DNA from: a virus | Length of the DNA: 13,322 nt | Reading direction: 5' to 3' (one strand) | UHGV virus genome: UHGV-1734956 | Shown here: in pieces, positions 1-12,133 of the stretch | How positions within the stretch are numbered: position 1 is the first letter of the stretch | Layout of the letters: each line of letters opens with the position of its first letter | Position numbers and translations under genes: made by a program | The notes under the pieces: model-generated | Database searches by the model: none | Told to the model about the DNA's origin: nothing | Seen by the model: only the letters and a program-made list of their open reading frames with translations

Positions 1-38
1 ACCCTGTTTTCCTTGCCATAGACACCATCCCTGTCTTC

Positions 39-64
39 CCCCACATGATGTGGGGTTTTTTTTT
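39..64 (+). terminator. Rho-independent terminator-like hairpin (CCCCACA / TGTGGGG stem, 3-nt loop) followed by a T9 run
   Basis: Read directly: ccccacaTGAtgtgggg then ttttttttt on the + strand. May terminate a rightward-transcribed flanking gene or belong to the att core region. Confidence 0.55.
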
Positions 65-150
65 ATCAATTACTTACATGCAATCAAAAGTAAAAACAGG
101 TACTTATCGAAAGCTGTAAGGGTTTGGAGCGGTTTCAAAATTTCTTGAGT

Positions 151-170
151 GTGGACACTATGTGGACACT
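151..170. promoter_or_regulatory. Tandem direct repeat GTGGACACT-AT-GTGGACACT, putative integrase arm-type binding sites next to the int 3' end
   Basis: Two perfect 9-bp copies 11 bp apart, about 15-35 bp beyond the int stop. Contains TGTGGACA, which I recall as the P2 Int arm-site consensus (from memory, not verified). Confidence 0.4.
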
Positions 171-183
171 CAGAGGGGGAAAT

Positions 184-3709: not shown

Positions 3710-4528
3710 GTGAATAACGTTGTTCATTACCACGGAACTCCTGTGTGGGGTGATGCAGGAAATGTTCATCGTATTGCTGTGAGTGGTGCAGGGGCATTTG
3801 TTTCCTATGCCCGGCCTGACCAACTCGTTGCCTCATTTAAACATGCTAAGTCCGTGGCGATTGATAATGGGGCTTTTTCAGCATGGAAAAGTGGCCTTGT
3901 TATCGACTGGCAGAAGTTTTATCAGTGGATTGCCCCTCATTATTATCATCCCAAACTGGCTTTCTTTGTCATACCTGATGTGGTGGACGGGGATGAAGCG
4001 GACAACGATGCGCTGATTAAAGCGTTGCCTCGTTGTTTTAGAGAAAAAGCTACTCCAGTCTGGCATCTGCATGAATCCTTGCAACGCCTTGTCGAACTTT
4101 GCCGGGAATGGCCTCGTGTTTGTTTTGGTTCTTCTGGCGATTACGCCACTGTCAGAACTGCACTCTGGCATAGCCGGATGCAGGATGCATTTGAAACCAT
4201 TTATCTTAAATATGGTTTTAGTACCCGCATTCATGGTCTGCGCATGCTTGATGGGCGCATTCTCGGTAATTATCCGCTGCATACAGCAGACAGCACTAAC
4301 CTTGCCTGTAACGTACCAAAATATCTTATCAAATATCCCGAACTGACAAGGGCAATCAGTGAGGCAGACTATACACAAAAACTTTCTGAGAAGGAGTTGA
4401 AGGCGTTCATCCTTAAAGGACGGTGTGCAATTCTGAAAAATTCTGTGGAGTCGGTTTTTCCTCCATCGATTGCTGAATGGGCATCAAATAGCCTTGCTCC
4501 ATCACAAATGGAGTTAGCTTTCGCATGA
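3710..4528 (+). CDS. Hypothetical 272-aa protein inserted between the orf83-like gene and A; function unknown (weak, speculative TGT/DpdA-like motif resemblance)
   Basis: GTG start with a purine-rich SD; stop overlaps the A start (ATGA). No equivalent gene at this position in canonical P2 as I recall it. Motifs HGTPVWGD and AIDNGAFSAWKSG loosely resemble the TGT-family TPxFMPVGT and DSGGFQ motifs. Confidence 0.6.
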   Translation: MNNVVHYHGTPVWGDAGNVHRIAVSGAGAFVSYARPDQLVASFKHAKSVAIDNGAFSAWKSGLVIDWQKFYQWIAPHYYHPKLAFFVIPDVVDGDEADNDALIKALPRCFREKATPVWHLHESLQRLVELCREWPRVCFGSSGDYATVRTALWHSRMQDAFETIYLKYGFSTRIHGLRMLDGRILGNYPLHTADSTNLACNVPKYLIKYPELTRAISEADYTQKLSEKELKAFILKGRCAILKNSVESVFPPSIAEWASNSLAPSQMELAFA

Positions 4529-6738
4529 CGATTTATGCTTACTCCTGGAACAAACCAAATGAAGCAATAGGACGCGAAAGATCTCTTACACGTGACGAGA
4601 TGCGTCAGGTGCAAGGTGTTTTATCCACGATTAACCGCCTGCCTTACTTTTTGCGTTCGCTGTTTACTTCACGCTATGACTACATCCGGCGCAATAAAAG
4701 CCCGGTGCACGGGTTTTATTTCCTCACATCCACTTTTCAGCGTCGTTTATGGCCGCGCATTGAGCGTGTGAATCAGCGCCATGAAATGAACACCGACGCG
4801 TCGTTGCTGTTTCTGGCAGAGCGTGACCACTATGCGCGCCTGCCTGGAATGAATGACAAGGAGCTGAAAAAGTTTGCCGCCCGTATCTCATCGCAGCTTT
4901 TCATGATGTATGAGGAACTCTGCGATGCATGGGTTGATGCGCATGGTGAAAAAGAATCGCTGTTTACGGATGAGGCGCAGGCTCACCTGTATGGTCATGT
5001 TGCTGGCGCTGCACGTGCTTTCAATATTTCCCCGCTCTACTGGAAAAAATACCGTAAAGGACAGATGACCACGAGGCAGGCATATTCTGCCATTGCCCGC
5101 CTGTTTAACGATGAGTGGTGGACTCATCAGCTTAAAGGCCAGCGTATGCGCTGGCATGAGGCGTTACTGATTGCTGTCGGGGAGGTCAATAAAGACCGTT
5201 CTCCTTATGCCAGTAAACATGCCATTCGTGATGTGCGTGCGCGCCGCCAGGCAAATCTGGAATTTCTTAAATCGTGTGACCTCGAAAACAGGGAAACCGG
5301 CGAACGCATCGACCTTATCAGTAAGGTGATGGGCAGTATTTCTAATCCTGAAATTCGCCGGATGGAGCTGATGAACACCATTGCCGGTATTGAGCGTTAC
5401 GCCGCCGCAGAGGGTGATGTGGGGATGTTTATCACGCTGACCGCGCCGTCAAAGTATCACCCGACACGTCAGGTCGGAAAAGGCGAAAGTAAAACCGTTC
5501 AGCTTAATCACGGCTGGAACGATGAGGCATTTAATCCAAAGGATGCGCAGCGTTATCTCTGCCGTATCTGGAGCCTGATGCGCACGGCATTCAAGGATAA
5601 TGATTTACAGGTCTACGGTTTGCGAGTCGTCGAGCCACACCACGACGGAACGCCGCACTGGCATATGATGCTTTTTTGTAATCCACGCCAGCGTAACCAG
5701 ATTATCGAAATCATGCGTCGCTATGCGCTCAAAGAGGATGGCGACGAAAGAGGAGCCGCGCGAAACCGTTTTCAGGCGAAACACCTTAACCGGGGCGGTG
5801 CTGCGGGGTATATCGCGAAATACATCTCAAAAAATATCGACGGCTATGCACTGGATGGTCAGCTCGATAATGATACCGGCAGACCGCTGAAAGACACTGC
5901 CGCGGCTGTTACCGCATGGGCGTCAACGTGGCGCATCCCGCAATTTAAAACGGTTGGTCTGCCGACAATGGGGGCTTACCGTGAACTACGCAAATTGCCT
6001 CGCGGCGTCAGCATTGCTGATGAGTTTGACGAGCGCGTCGAGGCTGCACGCGCCGCCGCAGACAGTGGTGATTTTGCGTTGTATATCAGCGCGCAGGGTG
6101 GGGCAAATGTCCCGCGCGATTGTCAGACTGTCAGGGTCGCCCGTAGCCCGTCGGATGACGTTAACGAGTACGAGGAAGAAGTCGAGAGAGTGGTCGGCAT
6201 TTACGCGCCGCATCTCGGCGCGCGTCATATTCATATCACCAGAACGACGGACTGGCGCATTGTGCCGAAAGTTCCGGTCGTTGAGTCTTTGACTTTAAAA
6301 AGCGGCATCGCCGCGCCTCGGAGTCCTGTCAATAACTGTGGAAAGCTCACCGGTGGTGATACTTCGTTACCGGCTCCCACACCTTCTGAGCACGCCGCAG
6401 CAGTGCTTAATCTGGTTGATGACGGTATTATCGAATGGAATGAGCCGGAGGTCGTGAAGGCGCTCAGGGGCGCATTAAAACACGGGCTGAGAACGCCAAA
6501 CCGTCAGCAAAGAAACGGAAGCACGTTAAAACCACATGAAATTGCACCATCGGCCAGACTGAGCCGGTCGGAACGATTGCAAATCACCCGTATCCGCGTT
6601 GACCTTGCTCAGAATGGAATCTTGCCCCAGCGATGGGAGCTTGAGGCGCTGGCGCGTGGGGCAACCGTAAATTATGACGGGAAACAATTCACGTATCTGG
6701 CTGCTGATGAGTGGCCGGGATTCTCAACAAACATATAA
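4525..6738 (+). CDS. A: Rolling-circle replication initiator (P2 gpA-like HUH endonuclease)
   Basis: 737 aa. HUH-type motif EPHHDGTPHWHMMLF (about 5630-5675) and paired-tyrosine motif AAGYIAKYISKN (about 5800-5835), as in phiX174 gpA / P2 gpA-type initiators. Last gene of the early operon. Confidence 0.9.
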   Translation: MTIYAYSWNKPNEAIGRERSLTRDEMRQVQGVLSTINRLPYFLRSLFTSRYDYIRRNKSPVHGFYFLTSTFQRRLWPRIERVNQRHEMNTDASLLFLAERDHYARLPGMNDKELKKFAARISSQLFMMYEELCDAWVDAHGEKESLFTDEAQAHLYGHVAGAARAFNISPLYWKKYRKGQMTTRQAYSAIARLFNDEWWTHQLKGQRMRWHEALLIAVGEVNKDRSPYASKHAIRDVRARRQANLEFLKSCDLENRETGERIDLISKVMGSISNPEIRRMELMNTIAGIERYAAAEGDVGMFITLTAPSKYHPTRQVGKGESKTVQLNHGWNDEAFNPKDAQRYLCRIWSLMRTAFKDNDLQVYGLRVVEPHHDGTPHWHMMLFCNPRQRNQIIEIMRRYALKEDGDERGAARNRFQAKHLNRGGAAGYIAKYISKNIDGYALDGQLDNDTGRPLKDTAAAVTAWASTWRIPQFKTVGLPTMGAYRELRKLPRGVSIADEFDERVEAARAAADSGDFALYISAQGGANVPRDCQTVRVARSPSDDVNEYEEEVERVVGIYAPHLGARHIHITRTTDWRIVPKVPVVESLTLKSGIAAPRSPVNNCGKLTGGDTSLPAPTPSEHAAAVLNLVDDGIIEWNEPEVVKALRGALKHGLRTPNRQQRNGSTLKPHEIAPSARLSRSERLQITRIRVDLAQNGILPQRWELEALARGATVNYDGKQFTYLAADEWPGFSTNI

Positions 6739-6799: not shown

Positions 6800-7060
6800 A
6801 TGCGGAACTGCGTGGCAATCTTGCTTTGGAAGCATGTCATTATGACTAATGCATACATTACTAGCTATGCGTCCGGTTCCGCCATTGTACTCGTGCAAGA
6901 GTCTCCGGCTGATGGCTATTGTTTACAAATTATGGTCAAAGAGAATCTGACCCTCTACGAGTTGGTCGGAGGGACTGAGATCGTCAGTGATAACTGCAGC
7001 CGTATGGGAGAAATAAATAATCCCAACCGTCCATATTTCTACCTTCACGCGTGCCCATAA
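6800..7060 (+). CDS. Small hypothetical ORF in the variable hotspot (86 aa; alternative start at 6842 gives 72 aa)
   Basis: Open frame only; no recognisable motif and weak ribosome-binding context. Position corresponds to the variable region downstream of A. Confidence 0.3.
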   Translation: MRNCVAILLWKHVIMTNAYITSYASGSAIVLVQESPADGYCLQIMVKENLTLYELVGGTEIVSDNCSRMGEINNPNRPYFYLHACP

Positions 7061-7231: not shown

Positions 7232-8770
7232 GCTGTGTTCCTTGTCGAATAAGTTCACTTCTTCTGGTGTAATATCAGTATCCATTTCTTCGAATGCATC
7301 TAAATCCACAATTTTTGTTTTTTTCAAAATTGATAGTATTTTCTGTTTGTTTTTATTTTTGGCTGAACCCGGAATCCACTCTACATCCCACAGGCCATCA
7401 ATGGTAAATGTTTTTTTTCCCTTGAGTTCATCATTTATGCGTTGACATAGGGCTGTTTTGTAATCGCCTTCCCATTGTGTGTGTATCTTCCCTTGAACTC
7501 GTTGAAACCAAATATCTAACATTTCAGTATTTGGTTGTTTACCTAGTTTACAATGAAGTTGTTGTAACTTGCCAAATTTGAGTTCATCGTCGTCATAAAG
7601 GAAGGTCAAGAGTTTTGCGAAAATAGCCATTCCCACTGGGTAGGTGGTTGGGTTTTTAGCCATGATGCTTGAAATAATTCCAAGCATTGCATCTAGTTGA
7701 TGCCCACTATTTGTGATCTTTTTCTTCCTAAATAATTTCCGCAAGAAATCATTTAAATATCTGACTGTAATTTTGGAGTTTTGATGTTTTAAAGAAAATA
7801 AATATATTGCATACAACATTTTCTGTAGGGAGTTGAACGACCCTTCTATAATATATTCTTTTTTTGCTGATTTAAGGGAGTGAAGAATGATGTCGTCATG
7901 TAGTTCTGTTTTTCTTGAGTTTAAATCAAGCCCAAACTCACCTAAGACCTCAACCAAACACTTTGAGATTTTGTCCAAATCATCTTTACTGCTTGAAAAT
8001 ATTCGATAATCATCTCTGTAGCGAACTACTTTGTAATCCGTTATTTTTTGCTCTTCGGTTTTTTTTCTTAGCTGTAAATCAATTTCGCCTAAAATTAATT
8101 CGGCAAATGTATCCATCAACGTACTACCCAATGGTATTCCGTTTGTCTGATTACTCATCATCATCTGGATATGAGTGTCAATCAATCGTCCTGGGTTATT
8201 GTTATTTTCTTTCTTTTTGGCCTCTTCTTTTGAGATGAATACCCATTCAAAGCTATGAGTGTAAATAGAAGGGTAGAAGTTTGAAATATCTGTGCTGAAC
8301 ATGAACTCATACTCAAGAGCCAATGAAAGACTTTTTTGTTCAAAATCTTCCCACCAGTTTAAAACAGATGCAGCTACGTTTGAGGTGTTCTTTTTGCTCA
8401 CTGGGATACTTGAGCATAAAAAAAGATCATTAGACTCAAACTCTCTAAATTTATTCCTTATAGCATTCCAGTTGGAAGAGGATGTAATAAGTTTACAAAA
8501 ATACACGTAGTACAGAGGATTAATTAGTGTTATTCGTCGCCAGCTATATAAGCCATCTTTGCTGACTAAAACCTCGTAATTTATATTCTTCCCCATCAAT
8601 GACTTGGAGTCAGGTTGGAAGTTGATTTTACCTTCATCTATCGCGGAGTTGATTTCTTCAAGCAAGGAAGAAAAATCGACATAACTGGGTAGCTCCAGAG
8701 TAGTGTATGAATCATGCTGCAGAAAATACTTAAGCGCTCTACCAGTAGTTAATTCATAAATCTTTTTCAT
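7226..8770 (-). CDS. Reverse transcriptase, defence-associated Abi-type (Abi-P2 / AbiK-like class), 514 aa
   Basis: RT motifs in the translation: FSTDISNFYPSIYTHS (motif A), NGIPLGSTLMDTFAELILGEID (motif B), VRYRDDYRIF (YxDD motif C), LDLNSRKTEL (motif D), then about 200 aa of C-terminal extension. ATG at 8770 (MKKIYEL...) chosen because the AT-rich body begins there; the track ORF extends to a TTG at 8896. Strongly AT-rich relative to flanks. Confidence 0.85.
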   Translation of the reverse strand: MKKIYELTTGRALKYFLQHDSYTTLELPSYVDFSSLLEEINSAIDEGKINFQPDSKSLMGKNINYEVLVSKDGLYSWRRITLINPLYYVYFCKLITSSSNWNAIRNKFREFESNDLFLCSSIPVSKKNTSNVAASVLNWWEDFEQKSLSLALEYEFMFSTDISNFYPSIYTHSFEWVFISKEEAKKKENNNNPGRLIDTHIQMMMSNQTNGIPLGSTLMDTFAELILGEIDLQLRKKTEEQKITDYKVVRYRDDYRIFSSSKDDLDKISKCLVEVLGEFGLDLNSRKTELHDDIILHSLKSAKKEYIIEGSFNSLQKMLYAIYLFSLKHQNSKITVRYLNDFLRKLFRKKKITNSGHQLDAMLGIISSIMAKNPTTYPVGMAIFAKLLTFLYDDDELKFGKLQQLHCKLGKQPNTEMLDIWFQRVQGKIHTQWEGDYKTALCQRINDELKGKKTFTIDGLWDVEWIPGSAKNKNKQKILSILKKTKIVDLDAFEEMDTDITPEEVNLFDKEHSA

Positions 8771-8976
8771 AATTAGTGATTTCTTCTTAAGTTGCGCACA
8801 AATAACTACCTGTTTTCTATCATGATAACGATGCGAATGCGAGCAATTCAGGAAGTGCATTACTCTGCATCGAAGCGCACGCAAGTCAGAGAACAATAAC
8901 TGCCTGGCGACATCAGGACTGGCGCGCTAGTTGAGTGGTCATGCAACTGCATTAAAACCGCCCCATGAAGCGGGCG

Positions 8977-8995
8977 GGCGAGGCGGGGAAAGCAC
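8977..8995. other. cos site core: GGCGAGGCGGGGAAAGCAC, the 19-nt P2/P4 cohesive-end sequence
   Basis: Exact 19-mer read at 8977-8995, about 170 bp beyond the portal stop and between the hotspot and Q, as in P2. The cos sequence is recalled from memory. Confidence 0.65.
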
Positions 8996-9137
8996 TGCGC
9001 GCTGGCGGTGGTGCTGATTTTATTTTTTCAGCGTCTGAGCGCGTCGTGAAGGCGCTTAGTCTGCCCGTTGAGGCGTTGGTGTGTCTGCGGGGTGTTTTGT
9101 GCGGTGGTGAGCGTGTGAGGGCGTGATGACGGGGTGT

Positions 9138-9159
9138 AAAAAAGCCGCCCGCAGGCGGC
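9138..9159 (-). terminator. Rho-independent terminator of the P-Q operon
   Basis: - strand reads GCCGCCTGCGGGCGGC (6-bp GC stem, 4-nt loop) followed by TTTTTT, starting 6 nt after the portal stop. Confidence 0.65.
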
Positions 9160-9164
9160 GATGT

Positions 9165-10188
9165 TCAGCCGTTGTCAGTGTCCAGTGAGTAGTTTTTAAA
9201 GCGGATGACCTCCTGACCGAGCCAGCCGTTTATCTCGCGGATCCTGTCCTGTAGCGGGATAAGCTCATTACGGACAAAGACCTTTGCCACTTTCTCAATA
9301 TCACCCAGCGACCCGACGTTCTCCGGCTTGCCGCCCATCAACTGAAAGGGGATGCGGTGCGCGTCCAGCAGGTCAGCGGCGCTGGCTTTTTTGATATTAA
9401 AAAAATCGTCCTTCGTTGCCACTTCACTGAGCGGGATAATTTTAATACCGTCGGCTTTTCCCTGTGGGGCGTAGAGAAACAGGTTTTTAAAGTTGTTGCG
9501 GCCTTTCGACTTCACCATGTTTTCGCGAAGCATTTCGATCCTGCACGGCATCAGTGACGTACATGATGTATCCGGCATGTGCGCCGTTTTCGTAATACTT
9601 GCGGCGGAACAGCGTGGCCGACTCATTCAGCCAGGCAGAGTTAAGGGCGCTGAGATATTCCGGCAGGCCGTACAGCTCCTGATTGATATCCGGCTCCAGC
9701 AGGTGAAACACGGAGCCGGGCGCGAAAGGTGTCGGCTCGTTGAAGGACGGCACCCACCAGTAAACATCCTCCTCCACGCCACGGCGGGTATATTTTGCCG
9801 GTGAGGTTTCCAGTCTGATGACCTTACCGGTGGTGCTGTAACGCTTTTCCAGAAACGCATTACCGAACACCAGAAAATCCAGCACAAAGCGGCTGAAATC
9901 CTGCTGGGAAAGCCACGGGTGCGGAATAAACGTTGAAGCCAGAATATTACGTTTGACGTAAATCGGTGAGCTGTGATGTACGGCAGCACGCAGGCTTTTT
10001 GCCAGACCGGTAAAGCTGATCGGTGGCTCATACCATCTGCCGTTACTGATGCACTCGACGTAATCCAGAATGTCACGGCGGTCGAGTACCGGCACCGGTT
10101 CACCAAAGGTGAATGCCTCCATTTTCGGGGCGCTGGCGGTCATTTTTTTTGCCGCAGGTTGCGGTGTTTTCCCTTTTTTCTTGCTCAT
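9165..10188 (-). pseudogene. Q: Portal protein (P2 gpQ-like) interrupted by a frameshift near 9535-9550
   Basis: Two overlapping - strand ORFs in different frames (9487..10188 and 9165..9626) together give about 340 aa, close to the 344 aa I recall for P2 gpQ. Start overlaps the terminase stop (TGATG). No single intact ORF exists in this sequence. Confidence 0.6.
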
Positions 10189-11960
10189 CAGTAAAACTCC
10201 AGAATGGTGGATGTCAGCGGGGTGCTGATACCGGCGGTGAGTGGCTCATTTAACAGGGCGTGCATGGTCGCCCAGGCGAGGTCGGCGTGGCTGGCTTCCT
10301 CGCTGCGGCTGGCCTCATAGGTGGCGCTGCGTCCGCTGCTGGTCATGGTCTTGCGGATAGCCATAAACGAGCTGGTGATGTCGGTGGCGCTGACGTCATA
10401 TTCCAGACAGCCACGGCGAATAACGTCTTTTGCCTTGAGCACCATTGCGGTTTTCATTTCCGGCGTGTAGCGGATATCGCGCGCGGCGGGATAGAACGAG
10501 CGAACGAGCTGGAACACGCCGACACCGAGGCCGGTGGCATCAATTCCGATGTATTCGACGTTGTATTTTTCGGTGAGTTTGCGGATGGATTCAGCCTGGG
10601 TGGCAAAGTCCATGCCTTTCCACTGGTGACGCTCAAGTATTCTGAATTTGCCACCGGCCACCACCGGCGGTGCCAGCACCACGCATCCGGCACTGTCGCC
10701 ACGGTGTGACGGGTCGTAACCAATCCATACCGGACGTGAGCCGAACGGATTGGCGGCAAACGGCGCATAGTCTTCCCATTCTTCCAGCGTGTCGACCATG
10801 CAGCGTTGCAGCTCCTCGAACGGGAACACCGACGCCTTGTCGTCAACAAATTCACACATGAACAGGTTTTTAAAATCGTCGGCGCTGTTTTCACGTTTGA
10901 GCTGCTCAATGTCGAACAGTGTGCAGCCACCTTTCAGGGCATCCTCAATGGTGACAATCTGCCGCCACTGGCCGTCCGCACAGAGAAGACCACCGGCAAG
11001 GGCGTTATGACTGACGTCGATTTCCACGCGTTCGGCGGCGCTGGCGCGTCCCCGGTTGAACAGTTCACCTGACCAGAACGGGTAGGCGTCGTGCGCCAGC
11101 GTGGACGGGGTGGAGAAATAGGTCGAGCGCAGGTGACTCTGTGAGGCCATACCTGATGCTACCTTACGCAGTACCTGAAAATTCGGGATCCAGAAAATCT
11201 CGTCGACGTACAGGTCGCCGTTATGGCTCTGCGCGGTGTTGGAGTTGGTGCCGAGAAAAATCAGTTTTGCACCGTTATTGCCCAGGACAATCGGGTCACC
11301 GGTCAGGTCAACGTCAACCAGCCGGGCAAAGGCAATGATGTATTCGCGGAACACATACGCCTGCGTTTTACTGGCCGACAGAAAAATCTGGTTATGACCG
11401 GTTTTCAGGGCGCGCAGCAGCGCCTCGCGGGAAAAATAAAACGTTGCGCCAATCTGGCGGGATTTCAGGATATCGCGGATGCGGTGCTCAAGCCCGGCGC
11501 GATACCAGTGCAACTGATAGTCGAAAGACTGCTCAAAGAAAATCTGCTCCAGCTTTTCGATGGCCTCGTCACTGAAAAAATTCTTTTTCGGTTTGCGCCG
11601 TCCGCCTTTGTTGCGGTTAGCGACGTTCGGATTAAGGTCTGCCTCGTTGCCGGTCTGACTGTAACGGTTTACCCGTGCCAGTCGTTCAATCTGGCGTCCC
11701 AGCAGGTCAATTTCCTTGAAGTCACCGCCGGTTTTCTGCGGTTTGATGATGAGCTGGGTCAGCCGCGCTTCCAGACTCATTTCGACACGGCTGATGGGGG
11801 CAACGCTGTCCCAGCCGTCGCGCTGTTTCCAGCTCTGCACCGTCGGGCGTTTCATCTGCAACATGGCGGCAATCTGCGGCACGGAAAACCCCTGCCAGTA
11901 CAGCAGCGCCGCCTGACGACGCGGGTCGTGTAAAAGAGTGGTGTCTGTGGTGATGGTCAT
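10188..11960 (-). CDS. P: Terminase large (ATPase) subunit, P2 gpP-like
   Basis: 590 aa from the ATG at 11960 (GAGG 6-7 nt upstream), the length I recall for P2 gpP; the track's longer ORF begins at a TTG (11990). Upstream of and coupled to the portal gene, divergent from O. Confidence 0.85.
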   Translation of the reverse strand: MTITTDTTLLHDPRRQAALLYWQGFSVPQIAAMLQMKRPTVQSWKQRDGWDSVAPISRVEMSLEARLTQLIIKPQKTGGDFKEIDLLGRQIERLARVNRYSQTGNEADLNPNVANRNKGGRRKPKKNFFSDEAIEKLEQIFFEQSFDYQLHWYRAGLEHRIRDILKSRQIGATFYFSREALLRALKTGHNQIFLSASKTQAYVFREYIIAFARLVDVDLTGDPIVLGNNGAKLIFLGTNSNTAQSHNGDLYVDEIFWIPNFQVLRKVASGMASQSHLRSTYFSTPSTLAHDAYPFWSGELFNRGRASAAERVEIDVSHNALAGGLLCADGQWRQIVTIEDALKGGCTLFDIEQLKRENSADDFKNLFMCEFVDDKASVFPFEELQRCMVDTLEEWEDYAPFAANPFGSRPVWIGYDPSHRGDSAGCVVLAPPVVAGGKFRILERHQWKGMDFATQAESIRKLTEKYNVEYIGIDATGLGVGVFQLVRSFYPAARDIRYTPEMKTAMVLKAKDVIRRGCLEYDVSATDITSSFMAIRKTMTSSGRSATYEASRSEEASHADLAWATMHALLNEPLTAGISTPLTSTILEFY

Positions 11961-12133
11961 GAATACCTCGCCGTGATGAATACACGGCAAGGCTACTGAG
12001 TCGCGCCCCGCGATTCGCTAAGGTGCTGTTGTGTCAGTGATAAGCCATCCGGGACTGATGGCGGAGGATGCGCATCGTCGGGAAACTGATGCCGACATGT
12101 GACTCCTCTAATCACTATTCAGGACTCCTGACA
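11961..12133. promoter_or_regulatory. Divergent late-promoter region between P (-) and O (+); expected site of Ogr-type activator-dependent promoters
   Basis: 173-bp gap between divergently transcribed packaging operons. Call is by position, analogous to P2 P_P/P_O; no specific activator site identified. Confidence 0.35.

Follow-up and report, generated by a model that had tools for sequence, protein, structure and literature searches.

A portal gene that falls into two reading frames beside an intact cos site and an intact terminase gene raises the question of whether the prophage has truly lost a virion component, or whether the break lies in the sequence record or is bypassed in translation. 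We addressed this question for one such gene in a 13,322-nt stretch of viral DNA (UHGV virus genome UHGV-1734956), referred to here as the window. This DNA represents the left part of a P2-like (Peduovirus) E. coli prophage and runs in the order attL, int, C, cox, an early operon with gene A, an Abi-P2 reverse transcriptase (RT) in the cos-proximal hotspot, cos, the portal gene Q, the terminase gene P and the scaffold gene O (Table 1).

The original prediction held that the cos site, the terminase, the defense RT, the integrase and the repressor had all been preserved next to the broken portal gene, and each of these points stood up. The cos 19-mer, which we take to be the P2 cohesive-end sequence, is exact, and P2-type phage records align with the window from 8977 onward. 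For the 590-aa terminase, the collection has 31,909 blocks with exactly the same protein. The RT, identified as Abi-P2 by both PADLOC and PDB 7r08, is an exact copy of a protein on record in 35 blocks; the open reading frame (ORF) as called mechanically is longer by 42 codons at its upstream end, where it reaches a TTG at 8896. Abi-P2 is an abortive-infection polymerase (PMC9508834), and a cos-proximal defense hotspot of P2-like phages has been described (PMC9122126); the RT of the window, a protein-primed polymerase of this type, occupies that hotspot. The integrase and repressor genes lie in a stretch that is identical to L022, a related locus in which they are called as normal genes, and integrase, repressor, cox and gene A are all full length in stretches almost identical to that locus.

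The terminase gene lies upstream of the portal gene in the same operon. A terminator-like hairpin followed by a T run probably marks the end of this P-Q transcription unit, and a promoter scan of 8900-12100 found nothing. Since Q is the last gene in the unit, no downstream gene is affected, and a polar effect of the lesion on the terminase was ruled out.

Table 1. Coordinates of features in the window (position 1 is its first nucleotide).
Feature	Position	Strand	Remarks
Abi-P2 defense reverse transcriptase, 514 aa	7226..8770	-	A-Q (cos-proximal) hotspot; PADLOC AbiP2 E 6e-160; PDB 7r08 E 3.6e-256
cos cohesive-end 19-mer GGCGAGGCGGGGAAAGCAC	8977..8995	+	Exact; 0 mismatches, 0 matches expected by chance
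Terminator-like hairpin and T run	9144..9159	-	Just past the portal stop; consensus match only
P2 gpQ-type portal gene, now a predicted pseudogene	9165..10188	-	1024 nt, against 1035 nt in intact genes
Stranded C-terminal part of the portal coding sequence	9165..9539	-	Native residues 221-344, including clip strand L240-Y243
C-terminal ORF, 153 aa	9165..9626	-	Reads ...IEMLRENMVKSKG... up to the normal C-terminus; upstream ATG at 9626
N-terminal ORF, 233 aa	9487..10188	-	Starts MSKKKGKTPQ...; TAA stop at 9487-9489
Mosaic patch	9513..9739 (227 nt)		12 of 16 substitutions relative to L022, surrounding the deletion
Deletion junction	9536..9540		+ strand, between 9539 and 9540; retained ATCG copy (cgat, 9536-9539) abuts C9540; 4-nt placement ambiguity
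Terminase large subunit gpP, 590 aa, intact	10188..11960	-	Pfam Terminase_5, Terminase_6N, Terminase_6C

The two portal ORFs, of 233 aa and 153 aa, overlap on the minus strand and occupy one place in two frames, as the original prediction had described; the split is a definite property of the sequence and no mere statistical pattern. In profile searches against the PHROG 68 portal family (344 positions), the N-terminal fragment matched positions 1-223 (E 1.7e-112) and the C-terminal fragment positions 220-343 (E 6.6e-57), such that the two combined span positions 1-343. Against Pfam PF04860, the fragments covered profile positions 45-174 and 200-276, respectively, each falling under the curated cut-off because the domain is split. 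A megablast search with a 1151-nt query from the portal region against 50,697 phage records returned 100 records at 95-99% identity over most of the region, annotated as portal and terminase of Peduovirus phages (P2, pro483, P24A7b, Yersinia L-413C and others), and the query corresponds to 1161-1162 nt in the matched records.

The gene also keeps the surroundings expected of its family. It sits between cos and the terminase gene P, a layout equal in L001-L023, and, as in intact relatives, the ATG with which it starts shares bases with the stop codon of the terminase gene (ATGA at 10188). Like P2 gpQ itself, the window portal thus lies by cos with the same ATGA overlap with gene P and ~97% nucleotide identity, a value that also holds for the pro483 and P24A7b genes, with a single 11-nt gap; in contrast to P2 gpQ, it is 11 nt short, its ORF is split, and its product ends at residue 233 and lacks everything from the clip strand onward. 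There is no uninterrupted ORF of ~344 codons that contains the clip strand, which is out of frame with the N-terminus, and the stranded C-terminal part can be read in the +1 frame only. Judged by its reading frames, the gene is most simply classed as a pseudogene of the P2 gpQ portal family and not as a functional member.

The alignment to intact P2-family portals that had been suggested as a check located the indel. Compared with the intact 1035-nt portal genes of pro483, P24A7b and P2, the lesion is a clean 11-nt deletion of ATCGCAACGAT at gene nucleotides 650-660, and this gap is the sole indel in the gene. The junction, including its 4-nt placement ambiguity, falls inside the interval 9535-9550 near which the change of frame had been placed. 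The deleted allele reads GCATTTCGAT joined directly to CCTGCAC, and an intact allele would carry the full ATCGCAACGATATCG. In the ancestral order, ATCG-CAACGAT-ATCG, two copies of a 4-nt direct repeat flank 7 nt; the window retains one ATCG, having lost the other copy together with the 7 nt between them. The deleted unit, ATCG-CAA-CGAT, is also a small quasi-palindrome that can form a hairpin, albeit a weak one at -1.0 kcal/mol.

Such flanking repeats are rare among the deletions that the gene could suffer. Microhomology of at least 4 nt flanks 4 of the 768 distinct possible 11-nt deletions in the portal gene (0.5%), the observed deletion being one of those 4, and the same fraction (0.5%) holds for deletions of 2-30 nt. 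There is no homopolymer at 9530-9550 or at the junction itself (gcatttcgat joined to cctgcacgg), in agreement with the earlier observation that the region has no long homopolymer. The direct repeat, with one copy kept, points to a microhomology-mediated (slipped-strand) deletion, and the lesion fits slipped-strand mispairing between short direct repeats, a footprint made by a polymerase; the 11 nt would then have been lost in such an event during replication. Slipped-strand deletions between short direct repeats are exemplified by the deletion hotspots of lacI, where, as here, one repeat copy and the intervening bases are lost. Unlike in those cases, the repeat in the portal gene, at 4 nt, is near the lower limit of the lengths usually reported, and the event itself is unobservable. 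The original prediction had expected a single-base difference. The actual lesion is instead an 11-nt, microhomology-flanked deletion and no 1-nt slip, which makes a base-calling error less likely than had been assumed.

The first 216 portal codons are unaltered, and the codons at the junction, GAT CGA AAT, by chance encode the native D-R-N of residues 217-219. The product is therefore native through residue 219, continues with 14 out-of-frame residues (ASRKHGEVERPQQL) and ends at a TAA. It lacks residues 220-344, that is, the 125 C-terminal residues, including the clip strand L240-Y243, which comes just past the premature stop (KNLFLY in the window). For the mapping of portal domains we relied on the published description of the P2 virion (10.64898/2026.09.14.750843), a cryo-EM preprint in which gpQ residues 27-340 are modelled as wing, stem and clip, and in which the clip strand L240-Y243 is paired both with the neighboring portal subunit and with gpL, the head-to-tail adaptor. 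An AlphaFold2 model of the intact portal (P0001 with 24 close homologs) had a mean pLDDT of 34.9, and no solved relative emerged when the repaired portal was searched by sequence against the PDB.

In P2, the portal at the unique vertex is a dodecamer of gpQ, the incorporation of which has been described as essential for DNA packaging (PMC7552001). Loss of the clip strand and all that follows is strongly predicted to abolish portal function: following established P2 biology, no portal dodecamer would form, and there would be neither DNA packaging nor tail attachment. Classical Q-defective (amber) mutants of P2 are blocked in head formation and DNA packaging, and the predicted phenotype of the window allele is the same: the portal would be lost, heads would stay unfilled and P4 would have no helper. 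Those mutants are nonsense alleles made in the laboratory, whereas the window carries a natural deletion in a prophage whose phenotype is a prediction. The prophage would release no infectious particles, nor could it serve as a helper for P4-type satellites, and immunity (C), integrase, the replication genes and the Abi-P2 defense would stay intact despite loss of the portal. The original prediction that such a prophage cannot make heads needs to be narrowed: it fails for shells, given that gpN/gpO shells assemble without a portal (PMC7552001), and stands for DNA-filled heads that can be joined to tails.

We then looked for the deleted allele elsewhere. A 100-nt query across the junction matched 1,285 of 5,426 complete E. 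coli genomes, and every target was 11 nt longer, the deletion being present in none. With a 50-nt junction query, no record among the same 5,426 genomes or among 50,697 phage records spanned the junction, and matches ended at the repeat. Exact searches for the junction 24-mer GCCGTGCAGGATCGAAATGCTTCG were negative in GTDB species representatives, JGI metagenome contigs and IMG/VR; as a control, an intact 35-mer was found in at least 120 IMG/VR contigs and in 3 GTDB representative genomes. An exact look-up of both truncated portal products in the assembly collection found neither on record. All 134 comparator portals carry the 11 nt: at the site of the deletion, the + strand reads ATCGTTGCGAT in 131 of them and ATCGTTGCGGT in 2, and 1 has an extra 1-nt insertion elsewhere. 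Likewise, each of the 20 loci recovered through exact terminase or RT matches has the 11 nt and a 344-aa portal, and among the 118 comparators with end-to-end coverage, 116 have the intact 1035-nt ORF. We conclude that the portal deletion is a private allele, a singleton among the collections searched.

Every one of the 5,426 complete E. coli genomes matched some part of the window and none matched the whole of it, the best covering 93% at 98.3% identity. The portal region occurs in up to 3 copies per E. coli genome. The other two of the 118 comparators also have broken portals, both on IMG/VR contigs (L069 1164-2197 and L029 7622-8654), with 2-3 separate 1-nt indels each; these breaks look like sequencing noise, with no single clean lesion.

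The nearest relatives of the window were found by exact-sequence look-up of the terminase (590 aa) and the RT (514 aa). Two of the loci are collinear with the whole window, L022 on a JGI contig and L014 in E. coli GCA_052717245.1. The window differs from L022 by 16 substitutions and one 11-nt gap, and from L014 by 37 substitutions and the same gap. The deletion is thus the sole indel in 13,322 nt relative to either locus, homopolymer runs included, and the sequence is accordingly of high indel quality. When the 11 nt are put back, the gene encodes a 344-aa portal that is one residue from P2 gpQ (I57V) and two from that of L022. In the comparison of the repaired portal with L022, 9 of 11 changed codons are synonymous, without any excess of non-synonymous change, and the repaired gene shows no sign, in its codons, of pseudogene drift.

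The substitutions are unevenly placed, with a patch around the deletion holding most of those that separate the window from L022, leaving 4 in the ~13 kb outside it. Each of the 12 states in the patch occurs as a common standing allele in the 134 other P2-like portals, and L011 has an allele similar to that of the patch. It is best read as ordinary recombinational mosaicism of P2-like phages. We also considered local hypermutation or error-prone repair around the deletion, which was ruled out, as 12 of 12 patch states are common alleles and 9 of 11 codon changes are synonymous. Outside the lesion, the window is nearly the same as in relatives whose portal is intact, and repair of the gene restores what is essentially a wild-type sequence, so the event is probably very recent. 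Within the window, the deletion is apparently a very recent single hit in an otherwise intact prophage.

We consider it likely that the deletion is a genuine mutation rather than an artefact. The converse, that the portal of the organism is intact and the gap is a consensus error, a minority variant of the culture or a chimera between reads from two P2-like prophages in one host, is in our judgement unlikely, although several observations are what it would produce. The junction is unique in every collection searched, a singleton as an error would be, and neither truncated protein is on record. The deletion also lies within the 227-nt patch that holds 12 of the 16 differences from L022, and a mixed assembly of two portal paralogs could produce such a pattern, E. 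coli genomes having up to 3 copies of the region. However, the patch alleles are ordinary polymorphisms, mostly synonymous, as in real recombination between P2-like phages, and k-mer assemblers do not collapse 4-nt repeats. Loss of 11 bases from non-repetitive, non-homopolymer sequence is atypical of base-calling or polishing errors, and an error-prone context was not found, there being neither a homopolymer at 9530-9550 nor a second indel in 13,322 nt relative to L022 or L014. The 4-nt microhomology, with its 0.5% expectation, favors polymerase slippage over a random gap. This footprint and the otherwise indel-free sequence together make a base-calling or polishing error unlikely.

A genuine deletion could still be one lesion among many in an old, decaying cryptic prophage, kept for its defense and immunity genes alone, or could be tolerated through a bypass in translation. 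Defective, or "grounded", enterobacterial prophages are common and often retain useful genes (PMC6379469, PMC7744054), a truly decayed P2 relative (L008, with a large deletion from capsid to tail) was seen, and the part of the prophage past 13322, with the capsid, tail and lysis genes, lies outside the window. Nevertheless, we find old decay very unlikely. The remaining genes of the window are all of full length and nearly identical to their counterparts in relatives, the repaired portal is 1 aa from P2 gpQ without a non-synonymous excess, the terminase and RT each match a widespread protein exactly, and cos is exact. The description of the element as "decaying or cryptic" in the original prediction was not borne out in the window, where the deletion is the sole indel and no other gene is damaged. 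As in the grounded prophages described previously (PMC6379469, PMC7744054), an essential virion gene has been lost and immunity, integrase and an anti-phage gene have been kept; unlike them, the window has one small lesion and no other decay in 13.3 kb, and would be at most a first step. In L008 (GCA_049979445.1), a 125-aa stub of the capsid gene at 8537-8914 stands beside gpU, D and ogr, with portal and terminase intact, and this locus is an example of real prophage decay in the P2 family.

Bypass would take the form of a +1 slip of tRNA-Leu from CUU to UUU, or of two fragments that complement each other. The out-of-frame stretch ends in CAA CTT TAA A (9487-9495, minus strand), and the stranded portal sequence lies in precisely its +1 frame; both this CUU-stop heptamer and the frame relation can be read straight from the sequence. 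After a slip, the portal frame would be regained at K238, just before the clip strand, giving a 340-aa portal with 14 wrong residues and the junction peptide ...QQL-KNLF... / ...ERPQQLKNLFLY.... The motif recalls the +1 site of prfB (RF2), CUU UGA C, which has a Shine-Dalgarno (SD)-like sequence 3 nt upstream and a weak stop. As in prfB, a stop comes directly after a CUU codon, and the remainder of the protein is encoded in the +1 frame. In contrast to prfB, the window site has CCG CAA CAA upstream and no SD-like stimulator 3 nt upstream, its stop is UAA rather than the weak UGA C, and it is an unconserved product of the deletion, relatives reading the same bases in frame as N-F-K-N. The likeness is one of resemblance only and probably a coincidence. 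Moreover, a slip would put 14 scrambled residues in place of 18 native ones just upstream of the clip strand, and no relative uses a frameshift at the portal. Bypass in either form is scarcely credible. Programmed frameshifting was rejected outright, as 134 of 134 comparators carry the 11 nt, 20 of 20 loci have a single 344-aa ORF and no stimulator is present.

One further reading takes the deletion as real and the portal-null allele as a selected state, in which the prophage would be a non-transmissible island of defense and immunity (Abi-P2 and the repressor), or would be partly rescued by +1 slippage at CUU UAA A. If this were true, tail production and cell lysis might persist, and the prophage would have taken an initial step toward an R-type tailocin. 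We regard it as highly improbable: nothing supports selection on the allele, which is a singleton. The preferred account, a recent slippage deletion, is an ordinary private loss-of-function mutation in a well-known type of prophage and involves no new kind of biology. For practical purposes, the prophage is best recorded as probably non-infectious and probably no helper for P4, with the portal gene annotated as a pseudogene. The locus provides a clean example of how one small slippage deletion can ground an intact P2-like prophage while leaving Abi-P2, immunity and the integrase untouched, and such grounding is the presumed first step of prophage domestication. As a singleton, the allele carries little weight beyond annotation.

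The window has several other features of its own. A 272-aa gene at 3710-4528 (+), in the early operon directly upstream of the replication gene A (4525-6738), matches PHROG 887, "queuine tRNA-ribosyltransferase" (E 8.8e-87), with no Pfam or PADLOC match, and may encode a DpdA-like DNA or tRNA transglycosylase. Gene A itself is 737 aa long here, compared with 750-765 aa in other loci, and L014 and L022 are the only loci that share this layout of a 272-aa gene and a short gene A. Between gene A and the RT, a small ORF at 6800-7060 (+) matches PHROG 13272 (unknown function; E 2.8e-54), and is called as a 72-aa gene in several relatives. In L014, the prophage adjoins cpxP-cpxR-cpxA (window 1-183; L014 18774-21492).
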